Part shown: positions 1 to 13,444 of the stretch, piece by piece
Position numbering within the stretch: position 1 is the stretch's first letter
Layout of the letters: each line of letters begins with the position of its first letter
Source of the DNA: a virus
Taxonomy: Duplodnaviria; Heunggongvirae; Uroviricota; Caudoviricetes
Virus record (IMG/VR): IMGVR_UViG_2645727539_000014
Span: 1-13,444 of that record
Strand: one strand, 5' to 3'
Length of the DNA stretch: 13,444 bases
Position numbers and translations under genes: made by a program
Notes under the pieces: model-generated
Seen by the model: only the letters and a program-made list of their open reading frames with translations
Told to the model about the DNA's origin: nothing
Database searches by the model: none

Positions 1-1007
<1,007 letters not shown>

Positions 1008-1011
<4 letters not shown>

Positions 1012-1454
1012 TCGAAACCCTGCTGGATTTTTCGGGGCTGGAGGACATCAGCCGCGATTTGCAGCTTCTGAGTGGTGCGGAAAACAACCGGGTGTTGCGT
1101 GAGGCAACCCGCGCGGGGGCGAATGAACTGAAAGACGAAGTGGTGTCACGGGCACCGGTGCGCAGGGGAAAACTGCGCCGCAATGTGGTGGTCCTTTCCC
1201 GGCGTTCCCGCGATGGCGGGATGGAATCCGGTGTGCATATCCGTGGTGTTAATCCGGACACCGGCAACAGTGATAACACCATGAAGGCGGATAATCCCCG
1301 CAATGCCTTCTACTGGCGGTTTGTGGAAATGGGTACAGTGAATATGCCACCGCACCCGTTTGTGCGCCCGGCGTTTGATGTGCGCAGTGAACAGGCCGCC
1401 CGGGTGGCGATTGCGCGGATGAACCGGGCCATTGATGAGGTACTGAGACGATGA
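1008..1454 (+). CDS. HK97 gp10-like tail component (head-tail connector/neck protein)
   Basis: 148-aa ORF with strong RBS GGGAGGGG and ATGA overlap at both ends. The sequence (MIETLLDFSGLEDISRDL...NAFYWRFVEMGTVNMPPHPFVRPAF) resembles the HK97 gp10 family as recalled. Confidence 0.65.
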
Positions 1455-1795
1455 CGGAGGCAGATTTGTACCCACATCTGGCGCATCTTGCCGGCGGGCA
1501 GGTGTACCCGTATGTGGTCCCCCTGCTGGATGGCAGACCCTCTGTATCGTTACCGTGGGTGGTTTTCAGCCTGATTTCATCGGTATCTGCGGACGTGATG
1601 GGGGGGCAGGCAGAGTCATCGGTGTCGGTGCAGATTGACGTCTATGCGGTGACGCTCACACAGGCGCGTCAGATACGTCAGCAGGCCCGTGAGTCCATAA
1701 TGGCGCTGGCCCCGGAATCGGTCAGTGAAATGCAGAGCTATATTCCGGAAAACCGCTGTTACCGTGCAACCCTGGAGTTTCAGGTCACGGTGTGA
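1451..1795 (+). CDS. Tail completion/terminator-like protein (DUF3168-like) upstream of the major tail protein
   Basis: 114-aa ORF coupled to the upstream gene by an ATGA overlap, in the position conserved for the tail terminator/completion protein of siphovirus tail modules. Confidence 0.55.
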   Translation: MTEADLYPHLAHLAGGQVYPYVVPLLDGRPSVSLPWVVFSLISSVSADVMGGQAESSVSVQIDVYAVTLTQARQIRQQARESIMALAPESVSEMQSYIPENRCYRATLEFQVTV

Positions 1796-1824
1796 CGTTT
1801 TTCTTTTTTCTACAAAACCCATAC

Positions 1825-1846
1825 CCCGCCGCGTGCGGGTTTTTTA
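1825..1846 (+). terminator. Short GC hairpin plus T-run (intrinsic terminator/attenuator) between the tail-completion gene and the major tail gene
   Basis: CCCGC-CGCGT-GCGGG followed by TTTTTTATTAT, immediately upstream of the AGGAGG RBS of the major tail gene. Confidence 0.4.
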
Positions 1847-1861
1847 TTATCAGGAGGCAGA

Positions 1862-2575
1862 ATGTCTGCTTTGTATGAACGCTCACAGCTGACGCAGGTG
1901 ATGATTTCATCTACCCCGGCGACTGCTGAAACTATGGAGAAGGCGGAATATCTGCGTCTGGACTGTACCATCAAGGAGGTTCAGTTCACCGCCGGCCAGA
2001 AACAGGATATTGATGTGACCACGCTCTGCTCCACGGAGCAGGAGAACATCAACGGTCTGGGGGCGTCGTCCGAGATTTCCATGTCAGGCAACTTTTTTCT
2101 TAATCAGGCCCAGAACGCCCTGCGTGATGCCTATGATAATGACACGGTGTATGCGTTTAAGGTGCAGTTTCCGTCCGGTAAGGGCTTTAAGTTCCTGGCG
2201 GAAGTGCGTCAGCACACCTGGTCATCCGGTACCAACGGCGTGGTGGCTGCAACGTTCTCACTGCGTCTGAAAGGCAAACCGGTGTCCTATGTGGTACCGC
2301 TGGCGTTTGTGAAAAATCTGGATAAGACACTTACCGTGAATACCGGTGCGCTGCTGACAATGTCAGTCAGTGTCAACGGGGGAACGCCGCCTTATAAATA
2401 CGCCTGGAAGAAGGATGGTCAGCCGGTAGAGGGACAGACTACTGACACTTTCAGTAAAGCCAATACGCAGTCAGGTGATAAGGGGGCTTATACCTGCGAG
2501 GTAACGGATTCTGCAGAACAGCCGCAGAGCATTACCTCTGATGCGAGTACAGTAACGGTTAATGGTGCGGGCTGA
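1862..2575 (+). CDS. Major tail (tube) protein with C-terminal Ig-like domain
   Basis: 237-aa ORF with AGGAGG RBS 7 nt upstream, located before the chaperone pair. The C-terminal ~80 aa carry an Ig-like signature (PPYKYAWKKDGQPV...GDKGAYTCEVTD). Confidence 0.8.
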   Translation: MSALYERSQLTQVMISSTPATAETMEKAEYLRLDCTIKEVQFTAGQKQDIDVTTLCSTEQENINGLGASSEISMSGNFFLNQAQNALRDAYDNDTVYAFKVQFPSGKGFKFLAEVRQHTWSSGTNGVVAATFSLRLKGKPVSYVVPLAFVKNLDKTLTVNTGALLTMSVSVNGGTPPYKYAWKKDGQPVEGQTTDTFSKANTQSGDKGAYTCEVTDSAEQPQSITSDASTVTVNGAG

Positions 2576-2583
2576 TAAGGCTT

Positions 2584-2958
2584 ATGGCAAAAGATCTGAA
2601 AACACTGGCGCTGGCCAGACTGTCGGGGTTCCGTCATAAAACGGTGAAGGTGCCGGAATGGGGAAATGTCAGCGTGGTGCTGCGGGAGCCTTCGGCAGAG
2701 GCCTGGTATCTGTGGCAGGACGTGCTCAATGGTGATGGAGAGGATGACGATACCCTGTCGGTGGTGGCGAAAACCCGCCGTAACCTGGAAGCGGATGTGA
2801 CGCTGTTCTGCGATGTCCTGTGTGATACGGACCTGAAGCGGGTGTTCACTCCGGACGACCGTGAGCAGGTGCTGGCCGTCTATGGTCCGGTACATGCCCG
2901 GTTGCTGCGTCAGGCACTGGAACTGATCGCTGATGCAGAGTCGGCCAGAAAAAAGTAG
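2584..2958 (+). CDS. Tail assembly chaperone (lambda G-like)
   Basis: 124-aa acidic ORF directly upstream of the tape measure region, ending ...ESARKK with the slippery AAAAAAG in its last codons. Confidence 0.75.
   Translation: MAKDLKTLALARLSGFRHKTVKVPEWGNVSVVLREPSAEAWYLWQDVLNGDGEDDDTLSVVAKTRRNLEADVTLFCDVLCDTDLKRVFTPDDREQVLAVYGPVHARLLRQALELIADAESARKK
2949..2955 (+). other. Programmed -1 frameshift heptamer A_AAA_AAG producing the G-T fusion chaperone
   Basis: G frame reads AGA AAA AAG TAG. The -1 frame continues GTA GCC CGC CCG GAA ATT CGT TTT CTG ATG... into the 2982-3263 ORF. The frame arithmetic fits (2584 is 1 mod 3, 2982 is 0 mod 3). Confidence 0.7.
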
Positions 2959-3263
2959 CCCGCCCGGAAATTCGTTTTCTGATGCGACTTGCGCTCCGTC
3001 TGGGGCGCACCTTATCCGAACTGCGCCACAGCCTGAGTGCGAGCGAGGCGATGATGTGGATGGAGTTCGACAGGGTATCCCCGCTGGGTGATGAGCGCGG
3101 GGATATCCGTAATGCGCAGATCGTGAAAGCGGTTTTCGGGGCGCAGGGGATGAATGTTGCACTGAAGGACGCCATGCTCTGCTGGGGAGAGGATGAGGAT
3201 AAGCCGGAGGTGGATCCTTTTGCGGCTCTGGAAGATGCACTGTCATTCGCCGCAAAAAATTAA
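2955..3263 (+). CDS. T-like segment of the tail assembly chaperone, expressed as a G-T fusion via -1 frameshift
   Basis: Open in the -1 frame relative to G from the slippery site to the stop at 3261-3263. Same arrangement as lambda G/GT. Confidence 0.65.
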   Translation, partial: VARPEIRFLMRLALRLGRTLSELRHSLSASEAMMWMEFDRVSPLGDERGDIRNAQIVKAVFGAQGMNVALKDAMLCWGEDEDKPEVDPFAALEDALSFAAKN

Positions 3264-3326
3264 TATTGATTCCTTGTGGATTTATTAAAGTAACGTCGGA
3301 GGAAATTAACTGAACGGAGTCATTTT

Positions 3327-3740
3327 ATGAAAAAACTCATGCCGTTGATTTTCTCAGCAGTTTTTTTTCTGACGGGGTGTGCAACCATTGTCGGAGATAA
3401 AACGCAGACTGTTCAGGTAAACAGTAATCCAGCTGGCGCGGATTTTATTATTAAAGATGAGTCAGGGAAAACAATTTCTTCGGGCAAAACACCGCAGAAT
3501 GTAACACTTGAAAAATCTGACGGCAGTTACTTCGGGAAAAAGAGTTATCAGATCACATTCAGCAAAGAGAATTATCAGCCTGTAACGCTGCCGATCAAGG
3601 CATCGGCTAATGGATGGTACATTGGTGGTAACTTTGTCTTTGGCGGTATTGTTGGCTGGTTGCTTGTGGACCCATTCAATGGCGGTATGTATACGCTGAG
3701 TCCGGAAAGTCTGAACCCCGGACTGGTACCTGAAAGTTAA
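3327..3740 (+). CDS. Lipoprotein (moron) with PEGA-like beta-sandwich motif and Gly-rich hydrophobic C-terminal segment
   Basis: MKKLMPLIFSAVFFLTGC has a signal peptide and lipobox LTGC; Ala at +2 predicts outer-membrane sorting. The NPAGADFIIKDESGKTISSGKTPQNVTL...YQITFSKENYQPVT stretch is PEGA-like. The gene is AT-rich against GC-rich flanks and has GGAG 9 nt upstream of the ATG. Confidence 0.8.
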   Translation: MKKLMPLIFSAVFFLTGCATIVGDKTQTVQVNSNPAGADFIIKDESGKTISSGKTPQNVTLEKSDGSYFGKKSYQITFSKENYQPVTLPIKASANGWYIGGNFVFGGIVGWLLVDPFNGGMYTLSPESLNPGLVPES

Positions 3741-3760
3741 TCAATAATATGCTGATGAAT

Positions 3761-3788
3761 AAAACCTGCTTTGGCAGGTTTTTTTTCG
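3761..3788 (+). terminator. Rho-independent terminator downstream of the lipoprotein gene
   Basis: AAAACCTGC-TTTG-GCAGGTTTTTTTT: a 6-9 bp stem, 4-nt loop and T-run. It is flanked by A- and T-tracts, so it may act in both directions. Confidence 0.75.
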
Positions 3789-3803
3789 CCCGGAGAAAGG
3801 TTA

Positions 3804-6800
3804 ATGGCGACGTTACGTGAACTGATTATCAAAATTTCGGCAAATTCACAGTCATTCCAGTCGGAGATCCAGCGGGCTTCCCGCATGGGCAGTGAATATT
3901 ACCGGACCCTGCAGAATGGCGGGCGTCAGGCTGCCGCAGCAGCCAGGGAGCAGCGACGCGCCCTGGCAGAACTGAACAGCCAGTTGACGGACATTCGCGG
4001 TTCTGCTGTCGGAATGGCTGGCGCATTTGCCGGTGCCTTTGCCACCGGACACCTGATTTCACTGGCTGATGAGTGGAGTTCCGTGAATGCCCGTCTGAAA
4101 CAGGCGTCGCAGTCATCTGATGAATTTTCGTCATCACAGAAAGTGCTGATGGATATCAGCCAGCGGACAGGCACGGCATTTTCGGATAATGCGGCCCTGT
4201 TTGCCCGTTCGGCTGCCTCGATGCGTGAATATGGTTACAGTGCTGATGATGTGCTGAAGGTGACGGAGGCCATTTCGACAGGGCTGAAAATATCCGGTGC
4301 CAGTACGGCAGAGGCGGGTTCGGTGATCACCCAGTTCAGCCAGGCGCTGGCACAGGGTGTGTTGCGCGGTGAGGAATTTAATTCGGTCAATGAAAGTGGG
4401 GACCGGATCATTCGCGCACTGGCTGCAGGCATGGGCGTGGCCCGTAAAGATCTGAAGGCGATGGCGGACGATGGTCAACTGACGGCGGATAAAGTTGTGC
4501 CCGCGTTAATCAGCCAGTTGGGGGTATTGCGTGATGAATATGCTGCCATGCCGGAAACAGTCTCTGACGGGATCACAAAGGTGGAAAACGCCTTTATGGC
4601 CTGGGTGGGGGGCGCGAATGAAGCCAGCGGAGCGACGAAAACGCTCTCCGGTGTGCTGAACGGTGTTGCCGGTAATATTGATGCAGTGGCAACAGCAGCG
4701 GGGGCGCTGCTTACCGTCGGGGTGGCCCGGTACTTTGGCAATATGGTCGCAGGCGTGGGAAAGGCCACCACAGAGCTGATCGCGGCGAAGTCCGGGACGG
4801 TTGCCCTGGCAGCCGCACAGGCAGATGCGGCTGTTCAGGTGCAGCGTAAGGCGGCAGCTGACGCGCTGGCGGCCGAACGCGCCTGGCAACTGGCACAGGC
4901 TGAACTTGCACTTGCCAGAAATAGCAGTGCGGAGGCGCTGGCCACACAGAATGCCGTCGCAAAACGCCGGGCCATGATTGTGGCCAATGCTGAACTTGTG
5001 CAGTCGAATCAGGCAGTGGCGGCCTCGAGGAAGGCGCTGGAGAATGCCACGTCGGTTACAGGGATGCTGAAAAGTGGAGCTGCATCCCTGCTTTCTCTGG
5101 TCGGCGGGATACCCGGCTTACTGATGCTCGGGGCCGGTGCCTGGTACACGGTGTACCAGAATCAGGAACAGGCCAGGGAGTCTGCCCGTCAGTATGCATC
5201 GACGATTGATGAAATCCGGGCAAAGGTACCGGGAATGACCCTTCCTGAACTGGCTGATAATGAGGGTAAAACCCGCGAGGCACTGGAAGAGCAGAATCGT
5301 CTGATTGCTGAGCAGGAAAGTAAAGTCCGTGGACTGAAAACACAGATTGCTGACTATCAGCGCTGGCTGCAGGAAAATCCACAGGGTGGTTCAGGTGTGG
5401 AGATTATAACCCACGGCCTTGCGGAGGCAACTGGCAAACTGGCGGTTGAACAGTCACGACTGACACAGATGCAGGAAAAGGCGAAGTCTGTACAGGAAGC
5501 TCTGGCGTCACTGGAATACAACCGTGTGGCGAGGATACGCGAGGAGGCAGCAGAGCAGAACATAGCATACCAGGCATTGCTGCAGATGAATGTTCAGCAT
5601 ACGGAGTTCAACCGTTTGCTGGGGCTGGGGAATGAACTGCTTCAGCAGCGGCAGGGACTGGTGAATGTGCCGTTACGGCTGCCACAGGCCACCCTGGATG
5701 ATAAACAGCAGAGTGCCCTGACAAAAACAGAGCGTGAGCTGGCTCTGTCCAGACTGAAAGGGGAAGAAAAAGAGCGTGTCCGGCTGGGATATGCGGCGGA
5801 TGACCTCGGTTTTGTGGGGGATCCGTATCAGGAGGCGAGACAGCGTTATATCAGTAATGCCCTGGAAGCCTGGCGCAATAACGAGGAGAATAAACCCAAA
5901 TCACGGGGTGGAAAATCAGAGACGGAAAAAGCGGAAGGCAGTTTTTCCCGGCTGCTTAAGCAGCAGAAGGAGCAACTGGCACTGGCCGGTCAGAACACGG
6001 AGCTGGCGAAGCTGAAGTACCAGACAGCGCTGGGTGAGCTGAAAATCCTGACGGAGATACAGAAGCAGGAACTGCTGCGCAATGCGGCCCTGATTGACCA
6101 GCAAAAAATCCGGGAACAGTTGCGATCCCGGGAAGAGACCCTGAAAAATGATAATGCAGACGCAAGGGTATCAAATGAAGCCGAACTGCTGGGGTACGGG
6201 CAGGGGGAACGCGCCAGGGAACGCATGCGGGAGTTGCAGCAGATCCGCGACAGCTTCCGGCAAAAGGATTCGGACCTTCAGTCTCAGTATCAGACCGGGG
6301 ATATCAGTGAGGATTTTTACAGACAGGCTCTGGCACAGAATGCGCAGTATCTGAGTGAACGCCTTAAAGACCAGGAAACTTTTTATGCCGAATCGGATGC
6401 GCAACGCGCGGACTGGCAGAAAGGGTTACAGGAGGGGCTCAGTAACTGGGTGGATAATGCGTCCGATTACGCCTCACAGGCAGCACAGCTGGCGACAGAG
6501 GGGATCTCAGGACTGGTGAATAACATCACGGAGATGCTGAACGGGAACAAAGTGGAATGGCGCAGCTGGGCCTCGTCAATCCTGCAGGAAATATCAAAAG
6601 TCCTTATGAATGCCGCGATTGTCAACGGGATCAAGACGGCGGCAAACAGCATGTCCGGAGCGGGAGGATTTCTCGGCAGCATTGGTGACTGGCTTGGCGG
6701 GGCGGTGGCCAATGCAAAAGGCGGCGTGTATACCTCGGCAAACCTGAGTGCGTACAGCAACAGTATTGTGGACACGCCGACGTATTTTGCGTTTGCTAAA

Positions 6801-7070
6801 GGTGCCGGACTGATGGGGGAGGCCGGACCTGAAGCCATTATGCCACTGACCCGGGCGGCGGATGGCTCGCTGGGAGTACGCGCGGTGGGAAGTATGAACG
6901 GCAGTGCCGGTCTGGTGTATTCCCCGGTCTACCACATCGCCATTCAGAATGACGGGGTTAACGGACAGATAGGACCGGAGGCGGCAGGCAGTCTTGTGCA
7001 GCTGATTGACCAGCGGGTGCAGGCGGTGATGCTGTCCATGCGACGTGACGGGGGAATGTTGAGTGGCTGA
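3804..7070 (+). CDS. H: Tail tape measure protein (lambda H-like)
   Basis: About 1088 aa from ATG 3804 with RBS GAGAAAGG; the ORF-track start at 3771 is a TTG inside the terminator. It has a long Ala/Gln-rich coiled-coil centre, and its C-terminal region (...TPTYFAFAKGAGLMGEAGPEAIMPLTRAADGSLGVRAVG...) resembles the lambda H C-terminus as recalled. Confidence 0.9.
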   Translation: MATLRELIIKISANSQSFQSEIQRASRMGSEYYRTLQNGGRQAAAAAREQRRALAELNSQLTDIRGSAVGMAGAFAGAFATGHLISLADEWSSVNARLKQASQSSDEFSSSQKVLMDISQRTGTAFSDNAALFARSAASMREYGYSADDVLKVTEAISTGLKISGASTAEAGSVITQFSQALAQGVLRGEEFNSVNESGDRIIRALAAGMGVARKDLKAMADDGQLTADKVVPALISQLGVLRDEYAAMPETVSDGITKVENAFMAWVGGANEASGATKTLSGVLNGVAGNIDAVATAAGALLTVGVARYFGNMVAGVGKATTELIAAKSGTVALAAAQADAAVQVQRKAAADALAAERAWQLAQAELALARNSSAEALATQNAVAKRRAMIVANAELVQSNQAVAASRKALENATSVTGMLKSGAASLLSLVGGIPGLLMLGAGAWYTVYQNQEQARESARQYASTIDEIRAKVPGMTLPELADNEGKTREALEEQNRLIAEQESKVRGLKTQIADYQRWLQENPQGGSGVEIITHGLAEATGKLAVEQSRLTQMQEKAKSVQEALASLEYNRVARIREEAAEQNIAYQALLQMNVQHTEFNRLLGLGNELLQQRQGLVNVPLRLPQATLDDKQQSALTKTERELALSRLKGEEKERVRLGYAADDLGFVGDPYQEARQRYISNALEAWRNNEENKPKSRGGKSETEKAEGSFSRLLKQQKEQLALAGQNTELAKLKYQTALGELKILTEIQKQELLRNAALIDQQKIREQLRSREETLKNDNADARVSNEAELLGYGQGERARERMRELQQIRDSFRQKDSDLQSQYQTGDISEDFYRQALAQNAQYLSERLKDQETFYAESDAQRADWQKGLQEGLSNWVDNASDYASQAAQLATEGISGLVNNITEMLNGNKVEWRSWASSILQEISKVLMNAAIVNGIKTAANSMSGAGGFLGSIGDWLGGAVANAKGGVYTSANLSAYSNSIVDTPTYFAFAKGAGLMGEAGPEAIMPLTRAADGSLGVRAVGSMNGSAGLVYSPVYHIAIQNDGVNGQIGPEAAGSLVQLIDQRVQAVMLSMRRDGGMLSG

Positions 7071-7404
7071 GATAAAAACGCTGCATCTGGTCCCGCGTGA
7101 AGGGATGCAGGTGAGTGAAAAACCGTCGGTGGCGAGGGTACGGTTTGGTGACGGTTATGAACAGCGTCGGCCGACGGGCCTGAATGCCCAACTGAAGACG
7201 TTTCAGGCGGTGTTTCGGGTGACGGATGAACCAACCCGGCGCTGGCTGGATGAATTTTTATCGTGGCATGGTGGTTACCGTGCTTTTTTGTGGCGACCGC
7301 CGAAACATAACCGAACGGTAAAGGTTGTGTGCCGTGAATGGAGCGTTACGGATAATGCCCGGTACAGTGATTTCAGCTGTACGATTGAGCAGGTGGTGAA
7401 CTGA
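7063..7404 (+). CDS. M: Minor tail protein M
   Basis: Translation ...PSVARVRFGDGYEQRRPTGLNAQLKT...FLWRPP...EQVVN matches lambda gpM as recalled. The start is probably GTG 7063, overlapping the tape measure stop; ATG 7105 is the alternative. Confidence 0.85.
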   Translation: MAEIKTLHLVPREGMQVSEKPSVARVRFGDGYEQRRPTGLNAQLKTFQAVFRVTDEPTRRWLDEFLSWHGGYRAFLWRPPKHNRTVKVVCREWSVTDNARYSDFSCTIEQVVN

Positions 7405-8102
7405 TGCAGGATATTCATGAAGAAAGCCTGAACGAGTCGGTTAAAGCGGAGCAGTCTCCGCGGGTGGTGCTCTGGGAAATCGACCTGACGGTGCAGGGCG
7501 GTGAGCGGTATTTTTTCTGTAATGAACTGAATGAGAAAGGGGAGCCGGTCACCTGGCAGGGGCGGGAATATCAGGCATACCCGATTGAGGGCAGCGGTTT
7601 TGAGATGAACGGGAAGGGCAGCAGTGCCAGACCGTCGCTGACGGTGTCCAATCTGTTCGGTCTTGTCACCGGTATGGCGGAGGACCTGCAGAGTCTGGTG
7701 GGGGCCACGGTAGTCCGCCGTCGGGTGTATGCGCGTTTTCTGGATGCGGTGAACTTTGTGGCAGGCAATCCTGAGGCAGACCCGGAGCAGGAGCTGACGG
7801 ACCGGTGGGTGGTGGAGCAGATGTCAGAGCTGACGGCCATGACGGCCTCGTTTGTGCTGGCCACGCCGACGGAGACGGACGGGGCGCTGTTTCCCGGTCG
7901 CATTATGCTGGCGAACACCTGTATGTGGACCTACCGCTCTGATGAGTGTGGTTACACGGGTGGGGCAGTGGCGGATGAGTATGACCAGCCGACGCCCGAT
8001 ATCACAAAGGACAAATGCAGCAAGTGTCTGCGCGGGTGTGAGATGCGCAACAATGTCGGCAATTTTGGCGGTTTCCTTTCCATTAATAAACTTTCGCAGT
8101 AA
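7404..8102 (+). CDS. L: Minor tail protein L (tail tip complex)
   Basis: MQDIHEESLNE...VVLWEIDLT...GGERYFFCNE...GNFGGFLSINKLSQ closely matches lambda gpL as recalled. The ATG overlaps the M stop (TGATG). Confidence 0.9.
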   Translation: MQDIHEESLNESVKAEQSPRVVLWEIDLTVQGGERYFFCNELNEKGEPVTWQGREYQAYPIEGSGFEMNGKGSSARPSLTVSNLFGLVTGMAEDLQSLVGATVVRRRVYARFLDAVNFVAGNPEADPEQELTDRWVVEQMSELTAMTASFVLATPTETDGALFPGRIMLANTCMWTYRSDECGYTGGAVADEYDQPTPDITKDKCSKCLRGCEMRNNVGNFGGFLSINKLSQ

Positions 8103-8107
8103 ATCCA

Positions 8108-8851
8108 ATGACACAGACAGAATCAGCGATTCTGGCGCATGCCCGGCGGTGTGCGCCTGCGGAGTCGTGCGGCTTTGTGGTGAGAACGCCGGAGGGGGAG
8201 CGCTATATCCCTTGTGTGAATATCTCTGCAGAGCCGGAGGCGTATTTTCGTATTGCACCGGAAGACTGGCTGCGGGCAGAGATGCAGGGGGAGATTGTGG
8301 CACTGGTCCACAGTCATCCCGGTGGTCTGCCCTGGCTGAGCGAGGCAGACCGGCGACTGCAGATAAAAAGCGCACTGCCCTGGTGGCTGGTCTGCCGGGG
8401 TGACATTCACAAATTCCGCTGTGTGCCGCACCTGACCGGACGGCGCTTTGAGCACGGGGTGACGGACTGTTACACGCTGTTCCGGGATGCATACCATCTG
8501 GCGGGAATTGATATGCCGGATTTTGAGCGTGAGGATGACTGGTGGCGTAACGGTCAGAACCTTTACCTGGACAATATGGCGGTCACCGGCTTTTACCGGG
8601 TGCCCCTGTCCTCTGCACAGGCGGGCGATATCCTGCTGTGCTGCTTTGGCGCATCGGTGGCCAATCATGCCGCCATTTACTGCGGCAACGGTGAGCTGCT
8701 TCACCATCTGCCTGAACAACTGAGTAAACGGGAGAGGTATTCCGAAAAATGGCAACGACGAACGCATTCAGCCTGGCGTCACCGCCACTGGCACGTATCT
8801 GCCTTCACGGGGATTTACAACGATTTGGCCGCCGCCTCAGCCTGTATGTGA
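8108..8851 (+). CDS. K: Tail assembly protein K (MPN/JAMM plus NlpC/P60-like domains)
   Basis: The N-terminus MTQTESAILAHARRCAPAESCGFVV and the HSHPGGLPWLSEAD JAMM-like motif are lambda K-like, followed by a Cys/His NlpC/P60-like region. The ORF overlaps the I start by 103 nt. Confidence 0.85.
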   Translation: MTQTESAILAHARRCAPAESCGFVVRTPEGERYIPCVNISAEPEAYFRIAPEDWLRAEMQGEIVALVHSHPGGLPWLSEADRRLQIKSALPWWLVCRGDIHKFRCVPHLTGRRFEHGVTDCYTLFRDAYHLAGIDMPDFEREDDWWRNGQNLYLDNMAVTGFYRVPLSSAQAGDILLCCFGASVANHAAIYCGNGELLHHLPEQLSKRERYSEKWQRRTHSAWRHRHWHVSAFTGIYNDLAAASACM

Positions 8852-9429
8852 ACACGGCAGCGGAAGCCATCCGTGCCCTGTCGATGCAGATGCCTGGATT
8901 CCGCCGTCAGATGAACGAAGGCTGGTACCAGATACGTATTCGCGGTGAGGACACGGCACCGGAGGCGGTGTACGCCCGTCTTCACGAACAGCTGGGTGAG
9001 GGAACGATCATCCACATTGTGCCGCGACTGGCCGGGGCCGGAAAAGGTGGACTGCAGATTGTGCTGGGGGCGGCAGCCATCGTGGGCTCTTTCTTCACTG
9101 CCGGGGCATCAATGGCGTTATGGGGTTCAGCCCTGGCAGCCGGTGGTTTTTCTGCCACCACGATGCTGTTTTCACTGGGGGCCAGCATGATACTGGGTGG
9201 TGTGGCTCAGATGCTGGCCCCGAAGGCTAAAGTACCGGAGTACAAAAGCACGGATAACGGTAAACAGAACACGTACTTTTCGTCACTGGACAATATGATT
9301 GCCCAGGGTAACCCGATGCCGGTGCCTTACGGGGAAATGCTGGTTGGCTCCCGGCGAATCTCTCAGGACATCAGTACCCGTGATGAAGGCGGTGGCGGGA
9401 AGGTCGTGGTTATCGGGCGGCAGAGGTAA
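8749..9429 (+). CDS. I: Tail assembly protein I
   Basis: ...ARICLHGDLQRFGRRL...GGLQIVLGAAAIVGSFFTAG...NGKQNTYFSSLDNMIAQGN... matches lambda gpI as recalled. Confidence 0.85.
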   Translation: MATTNAFSLASPPLARICLHGDLQRFGRRLSLYVNTAAEAIRALSMQMPGFRRQMNEGWYQIRIRGEDTAPEAVYARLHEQLGEGTIIHIVPRLAGAGKGGLQIVLGAAAIVGSFFTAGASMALWGSALAAGGFSATTMLFSLGASMILGGVAQMLAPKAKVPEYKSTDNGKQNTYFSSLDNMIAQGNPMPVPYGEMLVGSRRISQDISTRDEGGGGKVVVIGRQR

Positions 9430-9469
9430 AAAGAATAAAAAAATCCCGCAGTGTTGCGGAGCTGCGGGA
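9428..9469 (-). terminator. Minus-strand-oriented intrinsic terminator in the I-J intergenic island
   Basis: Hairpin TCCCGCAG-(10 nt loop)-CTGCGGGA at 9444-9469. On the minus strand it is followed by TTTTTTTATTCTTTTT; on the plus strand there is no downstream U-run. Confidence 0.4.
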
Positions 9470-9599
9470 GAGTTACGAAGATTAACTATAGAGAATTATT
9501 CTTATGTCACGACAAAAAACATTAACGCAGAGAAATTATTAGTACCACAGTCAGTTTGTGAAAATGTGAAGATATTCAGAATTTTTATTCAGTGATGAT

Positions 9600-9630
9600 A
9601 CAGGCATCCTCCGGGATGCCTGTTGTTTTT
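9600..9630 (+). terminator. Plus-strand intrinsic terminator immediately upstream of J
   Basis: ACAGGCATCC-TCCG-GGATGCCTGT, a 10-bp perfect stem with 4-nt loop, followed by TGTTTTT. It lies about 35 nt upstream of the J start codon. Confidence 0.55.
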
Positions 9631-9664
9631 GTGCGTAACAGTTATCACAGTAAAGGGTGAGACA

Positions 9665-12600
9665 ATGGGCAAAGGTGGCGGCAAGGCGCACACGCCGGTT
9701 GAGGCAAAGGACAATCTTAAGTCCACGCAGATGATGAGCGTGATTGATGCCATTGGTGAAGGGCCGATTGAAGGTCCGGTGAAGGGACTGCAGAGTATTC
9801 TGGTGAACAAAACCCCGCTGACGGACACTGACGGCAATCCTGTGATACACGGTGTGACCGCGGTCTGGCGCGCCGGGGAGCAGGAGCAGACACCACCCGA
9901 AGGCTTTGAGTCCTCCGGGGCGGAAACCGCACTGGGCGTGGAAGTGACGAAGGCAAAGCCGGTGACGCGCACCATTACATCCGCGAACATTGACCGCCTG
10001 CGGGTCACCTTCGGGGTGCAGTCACTGGTGCAGACCACGTCAAAGGGTGACCGAAACCCGACATCCGTCCGCCTGCTGATTCAGTTACAGCGTAACGGTA
10101 ACTGGGTGACGGAAAAGGATGTCACCATTAACGGCAAGACCACCTCGCAGTTTCTGGCGTCGGTGATTCTGGATAATCTGCCTCCCCGTCCTTTTAACAT
10201 CCGGATGGTCCGGGAGACAGCGGACAGCACCTCGGACCAGCTGCAGAATAAGACGCTCTGGTCGTCATACACCGAAATCATCGATGTGAAACAGTGCTAC
10301 CCGAACACGGCGATTGTGGGGCTGCAGGTGGATGCGGAGCAGTTTGGCGGTCAGCAGATGACGGTGAACTACCATATCCGAGGTCGCATCATCCTGGTGC
10401 CGTCAAACTATGACCCGGAAAAACGCACTTACAGCGGCATCTGGGACGGCAGCCTGAAACCGGCATACAGCAACAACCCGGCCTGGTGCCTGTGGGACAT
10501 GCTGACTCACCCGCGCTACGGCATGGGAAAACGTCTGGGGGCGGCGGATGTGGACAAGTGGGCGCTGTATGCCATCGGGCAGTACTGCGACCAGACGGTC
10601 CCGGATGGTTTCGGGGGCACAGAGCCGCGGATGACCTTTAATGCGTACCTGTCACAACAGCGTAAGGCGTGGGACGTTCTCAGTGATTTCTGCTCGGCGA
10701 TGCGCTGTATGCCGGTATGGAACGGCCAGACGCTGACGTTCGTTCAGGACCGCCCGTCGGATGTGGTGTGGCCGTACACCAACTGCGATGTGGTGGTGGA
10801 TGATAACGGCGTGGGGTTTCGCTACAGCTTCAGCGCCCTGAAGGACCGCCACACGGCGGTGGAGGTGAATTACACCGACCCGCAGAACGGCTGGCAGACC
10901 TCCACGGAACTGGTGGAAGACCCGGAAGCCATACTGCGCTACGGGCGCAACCTGCTGAAGATGGATGCGTTCGGTTGCACCAGTCGCGGTCAGGCCCACC
11001 GTGCCGGGCTGTGGGTGATAAAGACCGGACTGCTGGAAACGCAGACGGTGGATTTCACGCTCGGGTCACAGGGGCTGCGTCACACCCCCGGTGACATCAT
11101 TGAAATCTGTGATAACGACTACGCCGGTACCATGACCGGCGGACGTGTCCTGTCCATCGATGCCGCCAGCCGCACCCTGACACTGGACCGTGAGGTGACC
11201 CTGCCGGAGACAGGTGCCGCCACGGTGAACCTGATTAACGGCAGCGGTAAGCCGGTGAGCGTGGCCATCACTGCACACCCCGCGCCGGACCGGATACAGG
11301 TCAGCACCCTGCCTGATGGTGTGGAGACATACGGTGTATGGGGACTCTCCCTGCCGTCACTGCGTCGTCGCCTGTTCCGCTGTGTTTCCATCCGGGAAAA
11401 CACGGACGGCACCTTTGCCATCACGGCGGTGCAGCACGTACCGGAAAAAGAAGCCATCGTGGATAACGGGGCGCACTTTGACGGCGACCAGAGCGGCACG
11501 GTGAACGGGGTCACGCCGCCAGCGGTGCAGCACCTGACCGCAGAAGTCACCGCAGACAGCGGGGAATATCAGGTGCTGGCGCGCTGGGACACGCCGAAGG
11601 TGGTGAAGGGGGTGAGTTTTATGCTTCGCCTGACCGTGGCCGCGGATGACGGCAGTGAGCGGCTGGTCAGCACGGCCCGGACGACGGAAACCACATACCG
11701 CTTCACGCAACTGGCGCTGGGGAACTACAGGCTGACAGTCCGGGCGGTAAATGCGTGGGGACAGCAGGGCGATCCGGCATCGGTATCGTTCCGGATTGCC
11801 GCACCGGCAGCGCCGTCACAGATTGAGCTGACGCCGGGCTATTTTCAGATAACTGCCACGCCGCATCTTGCGGTTTATGATCCGACGGTACAGTTTGAGT
11901 TCTGGTTCTCGGAAACGCGGATTACCGATATCAGGCAGGTTGAAACCACAGCCCGCTACCTTGGCACGGGGCTGTACTGGATAGCCGCCAGTATCAATAT
12001 CAAACCGGGCCATGATTATTACTTTTATATCCGCAGTGTGAACACCGTTGGCAAATCGGCATTCGTGGAGGCCGTCGGTCGGGCGAGCGATGATGCGGAA
12101 GGTTACCTGGATTTTTTCAAAGGCAAGATAACCGAATCCCATCTCGGCAAGGAGCTGCTGGAAAAAGTCGAGCTGACGGAGGATAACGCCAGCAAACTGG
12201 AGGAGTTTTCGAAAGAGTGGCAGGACGCTAACGATAAGTGGAATGCCATGTGGGGCGTCAAAATTGAGCAGACCAAAGACGGCAAACATTATGTCGCGGG
12301 TATTGGCCTCAGCATGGAGGACACGGAAGAAGGCAAGCTGAGCCAGTTTCTGGTTGCCGCTAACCGTATCGCGTTTATTGACCCGGCAAACGGGAATGAA
12401 ACGCCGATGTTTGTGGCGCAGGGCAATCAGATATTTATGAACGACGTGTTCCTGAAGCGCCTGACGGCCCCGACCATTACCAGTGGTGGAAATCCACCGG
12501 CATTTTCCCTGACGTCAGACGGAAAGCTGACCGCTAAAAATGCGGATATCAGTGGCAGTGTGAATGCGAACGCCGGGACGCTCAACAATGTCACGGTAAA

Positions 12601-13078
12601 TGAAAACTGTACGATTAAGGGCATGCTGGAGGCGACTCAGGTCAGAGGTGACTTCGTTAAAGCTGTATCCAAATCATTCCCGAAACAGGCTGGTACGTGG
12701 GGTAACACGGAAACACCAAACGGGACGGTTACAGTCACCATCAGTGATGATCATAACTTTGACCGTCAAATCATTATTCCGCCCATTATCTTTAACGGAA
12801 TAGCGTATAGCTATCCGGGAAGTGGTAATAACCCGGGAGGTACAAGTTACACGGGTTATGGTTTTGAAGTTCGCAAAAACGGTGTATTAATCGCATCCAG
12901 AGAAACTAAAGGGGCCATTCCCGGTAGTTACAGTGCAGTTATTGATATGTCTAGTGGTGGTGGTAGCGTCACTCTGGAGTTTAAGATTTTCCAGAAAGGC
13001 AATCAGGGGGCAGGCAATATCACCGACTGTACGGTGATTGTGACCAAAAAAGCGGCTTCCGGCATCAGTATTCGTTGA
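9665..13078 (+). CDS. J: Tail tip / central fibre host-specificity protein J, with a divergent C-terminal receptor-binding region
   Basis: N-terminus [39 protein letters not shown], and long stretches further in, match lambda J as recalled. About 1137 aa from ATG 9665 (RBS AAGGGTGAG); the ORF-track start at 9623 is a TTG inside the terminator. The last ~150 aa differ from lambda J. Confidence 0.95.
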
Positions 13079-13100
13079 AATATTTATAACCCCAATAAAT

Positions 13101-13126
13101 GGCGTCAGGAATGACGCCTTTTTTAT
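13101..13126 (+). terminator. Rho-independent terminator downstream of J
   Basis: GGCGTCA-GGAA-TGACGCC followed by TTTTTTATT. Confidence 0.6.
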
Positions 13127-13148
13127 TGCAGAAAAGCGAGAGGTAATT

Positions 13149-13444
13149 ATGCGTAAAGTTTGTGCAGCCATTTTGTCCGCAGCCATCTGTCTGTCCGTAT
13201 CCGGTGCGCCTGCATGGGCGTCTGAACATCAGTCCACACTGAGCGCGGGGTATCTTCATGCCCGGACGAACGCTCCCGGTAGCGATAATCTTAACGGGAT
13301 TAACGTGAAATACCGTTATGAATTTACGGACACGCTGGGGCTGGTGACGTCATTCAGCTATGCAGGAGACAAGAATCGCCAGCTTACCCGTTACAGCGAT
13401 ACCCGCTGGCATGAAGATTCCGTGCGTAACCGCTGGTTCAGCGT
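13149..13444 (+). CDS. lom: Lom/Ail/PagC/OmpX-family outer-membrane beta-barrel protein, 5' part only; continues beyond the window end
   Basis: [24 protein letters not shown] is a signal peptide with an AWA-S cleavage site. The following ...[10 protein letters not shown]...[24 protein letters not shown]... is typical of the first strands of Ail/Lom barrels. It sits immediately downstream of J as lom does in lambda, with a GAGAGG RBS. Confidence 0.8.

Follow-up and report, generated by a model that had tools for sequence, protein, structure and literature searches.

The virus-derived DNA stretch analysed here (the window; 13,444 nucleotides, positions 1 to 13,444 of IMG/VR record IMGVR_UViG_2645727539_000014, Caudoviricetes) contains head-tail and tail genes of a lambda/HK97-like operon on the + strand and, between the T part of the G-T chaperone of tail assembly and the gene for the tape measure protein (TMP), a small additional cassette made up of an AT-rich leader and one gene for a 137-aa lipoprotein. 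This cassette is an accessory, mobile, selected and compositionally foreign moron, and it is dispensable for the tail, as more than 99% of near-identical tail modules do without it. Overall, the element is probably best explained as a mobile moron cassette carrying an envelope lipoprotein of lysogenic conversion. The site and the architecture of such a moron are known and even textbook, so that the value of the finding lies in the cargo, which is new in this site.

When a 2-kb stretch across the region was compared with 5426 complete Escherichia coli genomes, matches were obtained in 1247, with the insert being spanned in just 5. A second query, the window with positions 3264-3745 deleted, matched 1246 genomes; in 1244 of them, at 2911 places, it aligned colinearly as a single piece covering 100% of the query, while it splits into two pieces in the carrier genomes. 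The natural carriers are E. coli JNEC-KY202, strain 48, 2012EL-2448, STEC299 and CFIAFB20120266. With 5 carriers versus 1244 empty sites, the cassette is accessory and not a part of the tail, and the separate unit between T and TMP that had been proposed in an initial annotation of the DNA is thus a real indel, whose left edge, according to the alignment of carriers with an empty site, is the T stop codon (TAA, 3261-3263). The insert was also absent from all 179 phage records sharing the flanks (long-tailed Stx1a, Stx2a and Stx2c phages, BP-4795). The lipoprotein gene itself is present in 27 of the 5426 E. coli genomes, 5 times at this junction and 22 times as a diverged allele, and both diverged copies that were examined sit in P22-like prophages.

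In line with the AT-richness against GC-rich flanks that had been noticed initially, the GC content amounts to 0.44 in the gene and 0.33 in the leader versus 0.58 in G plus T and 0.57 in the TMP gene, and at third codon positions (GC3) to 0.445 versus 0.61-0.67 in the flanks. The leader is AT-rich as described, albeit 63 instead of 64 nt long. Having both a base composition unlike that of its neighbours and the character of extra DNA missing from close relatives, the cassette was rightly called a moron. Among window-type alleles, the ratio of nonsynonymous to synonymous substitution rates (dN/dS) is 0.08-0.21, from which maintenance of the gene by purifying selection can be deduced, and about half of the amino-acid replacements are located in the signal peptide or in the last two residues. 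One 99%-identical allele (L023 3641-4051, IMGVR_UViG_3300028991_000009) shows a D115A replacement at a residue invariant in 68 family members.

Immediately before the TMP gene, the insert had been thought to possess its own strong terminator. The hairpin found there (ACCTGC-TTTG-GCAGGT followed by T8, stem 3764-3769/3774-3779) is indeed strong, with -13.9 kcal/mol versus -4.8 ± 2.1 kcal/mol for shuffled sequences (z = -4.3). However, a near-identical hairpin lies between the T stop and the TMP start at empty sites as well, and hence it is a resident feature of the junction outside the indel and not the insert's own. HK022, whose tail module is unrelated, has no hairpin. In one E. coli genome (NZ_CP024134.1 3093053-3094676), the same hairpin-bearing T/TMP junction is occupied by IS200C, showing that it takes other cargo. 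The hairpin can thus be seen as a resident feature beside which varied cargos sit, namely the lipoprotein gene, HK97 gene 15 and IS200C.

HK97 gene 15, which sits between the genes for tail assembly chaperone and tape measure, is the gene for which the name moron was introduced (PMC3594210). The position of the cassette is therefore not unusual, as had been assumed, but the very slot of this prototype. In HK97, the T stop is followed by a 57-nt leader, gene 15, the hairpin CCCGCT-ATCA-AGCGGG with T8 (annotated as terminator), 12 nt and the TMP ATG; the window shows the same succession of a short leader (57 versus 63 nt), one small envelope-protein gene and a hairpin with T8, and in both cases the TMP ribosome-binding site (RBS) and ATG follow at 12-17 nt. 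Moreover, the TMP of HK97 is 57% identical to that of the window, with the first 22 residues from ATG 3804 being the same. Hence, from the gene 15 layout and the homologous TMP, the window has a different cargo in the prototype moron slot. The cargos are unrelated, as HK97 gp15 is a 62-aa YebO-family inner-membrane superinfection-exclusion protein whose function has been tested, while the cargo of the window is a 137-aa lipoprotein of putative function. The occurrence of the window hairpin at empty sites is a further difference from the HK97 case.

The lipoprotein gene is not restricted to this tail module. In IMG/VR, 106 related loci were found, of which 80 were analysed and classed by tblastn with reference flank proteins, and 5 of these are of the window type. 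In loci L029-L033 and L035 with lambda-like tails (G 52-61%, T 54-61% and TMP 44-57% identical to those of the window), a lipoprotein with 68-70% identity again sits between T and TMP. Each of these loci has a separate AT-rich leader (about 70-120 nt) ahead of the gene and a separate, different hairpin with a T-run right before the TMP RBS. Accordingly, at least three further divergent lambda-like tail modules bear the lipoprotein gene at the T/TMP junction. Locus L028 has a Phage_TAC_4 chaperone, and its lipoprotein gene lies upstream of a Proteus-like TMP gene with further open reading frames (ORFs) between, whereas in Proteus prophages, whose Phage_TAC_4 chaperone is unrelated to that of the window, it is found immediately upstream of the TMP gene and other genes separate the chaperones from it. 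The Proteus cassette (L009 5820-6480, L010) shows terminator-type hairpins on both sides, and the chaperone-TMP region of these prophages is a multi-gene island, one variant of which contains a cI-like repressor and a Bro-N protein.

About 67 of the 80 loci are P22-like and hold the gene between ejection gene 16 and mnt, an arrangement also found in Salmonella phage epsilon34 (gene 15), Escherichia phage Gally (GALLYPH_14) and vB_EcoP-720R6. The protein had been taken as unknown in phages; it belongs, however, to PHROG 6823, and the products of these three phages are full-length homologs with 68% identity. Gene 15 of epsilon34 has been placed in the "ant moron", its function being unknown, and matches many bacterial genes (PMC2629481). 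This region is the sieA/immI locus, where P22 carries sieA. The copies in epsilon34, Gally and vB_EcoP-720R6 are AT-rich stand-alone cassettes like that of the window and are followed by a terminator, the place of which is taken in the window by the terminator-like hairpin of the junction, but they reside in podoviruses, at the gene 16-mnt site instead of a tail operon, and have a longer and different leader. The P22-like alleles are 98-100% identical to one another next to gp16 and gp20 proteins of 31-100% identity, which is indicative of horizontal movement of the cassette. In all sampled phage contexts, the GC content of the gene (0.40-0.45) differs from that of the flanks (0.49-0.58). Unrelated phage types thus carry the lipoprotein in preferred moron slots.

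As initially annotated, ORF 3327-3740 encodes a lipoprotein of 137 aa, the N-terminus of which, MKKLMPLIFSAVFFLTG|C, has a canonical lipobox. The signal consists of the n-region MKK, the h-region LMPLIFSAVFF and the lipobox LTG|C with Ala at +2, in agreement with the sequence criteria for bacterial lipoproteins, which call for a positively charged n-region, a hydrophobic h-region, a lipobox [LVI][ASTVI][GAS]C and a residue other than Asp at +2. By the Lol sorting rule, Ala at +2 predicts an outer-membrane destination, and the Lol system would place the product, cleaved at LTG|C and lipidated, in the outer membrane's inner leaflet. The protein can be divided into signal peptide (residues 1-17), lipidated Cys18, a beta-sandwich (26-94), a Gly/aromatic hydrophobic helix (96-113) and C-terminal strands (121-137). 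An AlphaFold2 run with a 68-sequence alignment (mean predicted local distance difference test score, pLDDT, of 79.6) gives a predicted fold of a transthyretin/PEGA-like sandwich with the conserved Gly/aromatic helix. Ten-residue blocks of the sandwich reach mean pLDDT values of 84-98 across positions 31-90, and the C-terminal strands pack back onto it with values of 92-93. As the sandwich starts just 8 residues past the lipid anchor, it would lie flat against the membrane. The hydrophobic segment GWYIGGNFVFGGIVGWLLV contains 6 Gly and 5 aromatic residues at a mean Kyte-Doolittle (KD) hydropathy of 1.36. With both ends of the helix on the same domain and the C-terminal tail packed on the sandwich, a crossing of the bilayer is unlikely; in the model the helix is probably interfacial, dipping into the leaflet, or serves self-association. 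A C-terminal transmembrane anchor, which would make this an inner-membrane protein, was also considered and is unlikely in view of the tail packing at pLDDT 92-93 and the hydropathy of 1.36.

Profile searches gave a full-length match to PHROG 6823 (E 6.7e-72, residues 3-136 versus positions 2-135 of the 139 in the profile). The PEGA-like character proposed initially holds for the predicted fold, whereas the match to Pfam PEGA (PF08308) scores 18.2 bits and is below the gathering threshold of 20.8; likewise, 6 of 19 homologs match this family, none above threshold. Apart from this sub-threshold hit, no Pfam family matched the lipoprotein at E ≤ 0.1, NCBIfam gave signal-peptide-level matches and no functional family, and none of the PADLOC defence families matched. 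Similarity to known exclusion families was not detected in Pfam, NCBIfam or PHROGs. Neither did tail structural or assembly families match in Pfam and PHROGs, so that, in line with the initial expectation, the protein is not a characterised structural tail component. A relation to glycine-zipper families did not emerge, with no match to Pfam Gly-zipper_* or Rick_17kDa_Anti and a single 18-residue helix in place of a GxxxGxxxG transmembrane hairpin. Glycine-zipper lipoproteins of the SlyB/Pcp type are built from the same ingredients (lipid anchor, hydrophobic helix rich in Gly, small beta-rich domain); they differ in the reversed domain order and in having a two-helix hairpin versus the single short helix (KD 1.36) of the window protein. 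Compared with PEGA, CarboxypepD_reg and transthyretin-like domains, the family is sub-threshold for PEGA and has its own N- and C-terminal motifs. Bor (lambda), Cor (phi80, N15, HK022) and Llp (T5) are likewise small phage-encoded outer-membrane lipoproteins acting on the host envelope, but they are encoded at other genome positions and show no sequence relationship detectable with Pfam at E ≤ 0.1, so that any likeness would be one of functional analogy.

Homologs of the protein are mainly chromosomal. There are 348 close homologs across Enterobacterales and Pasteurellaceae, and a profile search of 1.84 billion cluster representatives (50% identity) yielded 5379 representatives with E ≤ 1e-3, of which 2002 reached E ≤ 1e-10 and 159 E ≤ 1e-30; the matches are mostly full-length with 135-180 aa. 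The chromosomal members (Enterobacter, two Pasteurellaceae, Fukatsuia, a contig from a metagenome) stand alone, and their neighbourhoods are unrelated and not of phage type. The family is missing from the core genome of E. coli, which acquires the gene through prophages only. Compared with the chromosomal allele of Enterobacter, non-window phage alleles show 78-81% identity and the window allele 74%; phage alleles are thus as close to the chromosomal one as to one another, and the window allele is the outlier among the alleles compared (64-74% identity to all others). Across 68 homologs, no variation occurs at C18, A19 and I21, and conservation of G17 and T20 is at least 90%. The N-terminal CATIVGD and C-terminal NGWYIGGN..FGG..GW..DP.NGGMY motifs are invariant and specific to this lipoprotein family, and the phage copies keep the invariant residues C18, A19, I21, G23, Q27, N95, G96, N102, G110, D115, P116, G119, M121, Y122 and P126. 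A remote member of 365 aa (P0140) is fused at its C-terminus to an OmpA-like beta-barrel (OmpA_membrane, E 2e-15), a fusion which would fit an outer-membrane setting; other long members have Pro/Ala-rich low-complexity tails and no further informative fusion. In Actinobacillus succinogenes (L012 6001-8364), 14 bp separate the homolog from a downstream pair, the genes for a TbpB_B_D/FHBP_C-like lipoprotein and for Slam (SlipAM + TPR_Slam). This pair was dismissed as functional partner, as the adjacency is absent in the five other chromosomal contexts examined. In the literature on PEGA lipoproteins and P22-like lipoprotein morons, nothing was found on this family.

Published RNA-seq data are available for the homolog GALLYPH_14 (LF82_139; 68% identical to the window protein), Gally being a prophage of the adherent-invasive, Crohn's-associated E. 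coli strain LF82. All values are log2(fpkm+5), with fpkm for fragments per kilobase per million, from S1 Table of PMC9928086 and refer to lysogeny broth (LB), Dulbecco's modified Eagle's medium (DMEM) and macrophages, where MB6 denotes macrophages 6 h post infection, MB1 was taken as macrophages at 1 h, and B1 and B6 were taken as DMEM. GALLYPH_14 shows values of 6.22 and 4.79 in stationary LB cultures, 9.82-10.49 in B1/B6, 11.0 in MB1 and 9.4-9.5 in MB6, while the injection gene GALLYPH_12 remains at 3.6-3.9, 3.6-3.7, 4.0 and 4.1-4.2, respectively (PMC9928086). Together with GALLYPH_13, GALLYPH_14 thus reaches 8-11 in DMEM and macrophages versus about 4 for the adjacent structural genes (PMC9928086). 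GALLYPH_14 itself exceeds the adjacent late genes roughly 60-100 fold, with the structural genes being silent. It follows that transcription of the homolog in the lysogen does not depend on the late operon and is conditional. It is among the most highly transcribed Gally genes in DMEM and macrophages, and the original study left it off its moron list. For the five Gally genes furthest to the right, a 6-40 fold induction in macrophages is reported, as is an induction of Bor in DMEM in LF82 (PMC9928086).

A corresponding promoter in the window can be outlined tentatively. The sigma70-like promoter proposed initially (TTAATA-17-TATTAA) has 8 consensus bases out of 12, its -10 element lacking T at position 6, and no sigma-70 site was called on this strand by a consensus scan. 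When 12 leaders from at least seven contexts were aligned (the window type, three further lambda-like types, one Phage_TAC_4 type, P22-like phages, Proteus and the Enterobacter chromosome), three columns only proved invariant, and these form TAnnnT upstream of the start codon at a distance of about 30-37 nt. In the window this is TAAAGT, 3 nt downstream of the -10 element proposed before. As such a pattern is common in AT-rich DNA, it is suggestive only. For the leader motif TTTCTGAT of other cassette types, a sigma-E type promoter was considered and discarded, the -35 matches being too weak. In P22-like phages, the upstream gene is divergent, and the lipoprotein gene must therefore have its own promoter there.

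Taken as a whole, these data may be reconciled as follows. The lipoprotein would be anchored in the inner leaflet of the outer membrane with its sandwich held against the membrane. By analogy to the 68% homolog, the repressed prophage may express the gene autonomously, with host-like medium giving stronger transcription than LB. The gene might also be read through during Q-antiterminated late transcription, and the product would play a role in the host envelope of the lysogen. More specifically, we tentatively favour an envelope factor of lysogenic conversion, giving the E. coli lysogen the cellular envelope function of the family, over a receptor-specific blocker, although with somewhat less than even confidence. 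This is favoured because the family is overwhelmingly chromosomal, the phage copies are undiverged from the chromosomal ones, and the phages that carry the cassette differ in having unrelated receptor-binding proteins. Several points speak against it. Searches of Pfam, NCBIfam, PHROGs, PADLOC and the literature gave no characterised homolog that would define the function of the lipoprotein, the Gly-rich helix is modelled with low confidence (pLDDT about 55-72), and both phage slots occupied are those of superinfection-exclusion genes (HK97 gp15, P22 sieA). The window-type leader is short (63 nt), unlike those of the other cassette types, and has no recognisable -35 element, so that lysogen expression of the window copy is putative. 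Besides, Gally was judged moron-free by the authors of the expression study, who scored morons in LB with a 5-fold cut-off (PMC9928086).

Superinfection exclusion or receptor masking, with the lipoprotein blocking adsorption or DNA entry of incoming phages, appears unlikely on balance, but is a serious rival because the slots are those of HK97 gp15 and P22 sieA, i.e., the gene 15 slot and, in P22-like phages, the gene 16-mnt locus. Of the known factors, Cor and Llp act at FhuA, and HK97 gp15 and P22 SieA at DNA entry. A predicted envelope protein with a homolog expressed from a prophage would suit such a role, and lipoprotein exclusion factors are an established class (PMC3594210). On the other hand, neither a PADLOC match nor similarity to known exclusion families was obtained, and the family is mostly chromosomal and highly conserved with undiverged phage alleles, unlike HK97 gp15 versus YebO (PMC3594210). 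Moreover, the receptor-binding proteins of the carriers are unrelated (lambda-like J, several P22-like tailspike types, Proteus siphophages), which argues against a single masked receptor. A bolder version, doubtful and slightly less probable still, would be an unrecognised class of mobile prophage lipoproteins blocking phage entry at the outer membrane or periplasm, captured from a housekeeping envelope gene, installed repeatedly in the HK97 gene-15 slot (before TMP) and the P22 sieA slot (before immI), and tuned in expression to host-like conditions.

Quite improbable is an accessory of the lytic cycle only, produced by late-operon read-through and, for example, sparing progeny from loss on cell debris; it would play no part in the lysogen. 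The position of the gene within the late operon, with the junction hairpin downstream of it, the 63-nt leader without strong promoter and the scoring of Gally as moron-free in LB (PMC9928086) would be compatible with this, yet it conflicts with the 60-100 fold excess of the Gally homolog over adjacent late genes in DMEM and macrophages, with the own promoter required next to a divergent gene in P22-like phages, and with the TAnnnT conserved upstream in all contexts. A virion or tail-assembly component, as might be supposed from the place among tail genes beside the TMP gene recurring in several tail lineages, has a negligible probability given the absence of the gene from 1244 of 1246 genomes with near-identical tail modules and from 179 of 179 phage records, the lipoprotein signal peptide, the chromosomal non-phage homologs and the presence in podoviruses, which have no tape measure. 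Returning to envelope conversion as the preferred reading, assigning a function would cover a widespread prophage gene and a large bacterial family (5379 representatives), and what is worth experiments is this lipoprotein family together with the expression of its LF82 homolog, which had been overlooked.

Table 1. Features of the window on the strand shown, with the basis of their assignment.
Feature	Position	Strand	Basis or remark
Head completion protein gene	start 661	+	
HK97-gp10-like gene	start 1008	+	
gp17-like gene	start 1451	+	
Major tail gene V	start 1862	+	
Tail assembly chaperone gene G, resident left-flank gene	2584..2958	+	Pfam Phage_TAC_1, E 1.1e-60
T part of G-T chaperone, left flank	2982..3263	+	Pfam Phage_tail_T, E 4.8e-19
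Cassette as indel (leader, ORF and a few bases)	3264..3745	+	5 E. coli genomes with, 1244 without
AT-rich leader, Shine-Dalgarno GGAG 3316-3319	3264..3326	+	GC 0.33, 63 nt
Candidate -10 element TAAAGT (TAnnnT), convincing -35 absent	3286..3291	+	Leader alignment
Lipoprotein gene, 137 aa	3327..3740	+	Lipobox, PHROG 6823, AlphaFold2 model
Hairpin + T8, terminator-like, resident at T/TMP junction	3761..3786	+	Folding; present at empty sites
Tape measure gene (TMP), right flank	3804..7070	+	ATG 3804, RBS GGAGAAAGG at 3792-3800
Tail genes M, L, K and I	between TMP and J	+	
J	start 9667	+	ATG 9667, not TTG 9623 of the mechanical ORF list

For the TMP gene (Table 1), the mechanical ORF list gives a start at TTG 3771, which was rejected, since this codon falls within the hairpin and relatives all use the equivalent of ATG 3804. 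The statement of the initial annotation that the other genes of the operon abut or overlap proved incorrect, as I and J are separated by 237 nt (9430-9666) with a hairpin, and J is followed by a terminator and then lom. The I-J gap is AT-rich (GC about 0.43-0.46), with one hairpin at about 9445-9470 and a terminator-like one, ACAGGCATCC-tccg-GGATGCCTGT plus T-run, at about 9601-9632, and could be another empty or RNA-bearing moron slot. Downstream of the J stop, the hairpin GGCGTCA-ggaa-TGACGCC with a T-run (13101-13125) precedes the gene of an Ail/Lom outer-membrane protein (lom, 13149-13444, cut by the window end; Pfam Ail_Lom, E 5e-56), which is a second, classical moron within the same window and accounts for the drop in GC content at 12600-13200. 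The left end of the window bears an IS3-family transposase orfA (274-621, - strand; HTH_Tnp_1, E 5e-12) at the place where relatives have a head-tail connector gene, and this insertion sequence may interrupt the prophage head region. Inside orfA, on the same strand, lies isrC (467-589), an Hfq-binding small RNA recognised with 150 bits versus a gathering score of 39 in Rfam.

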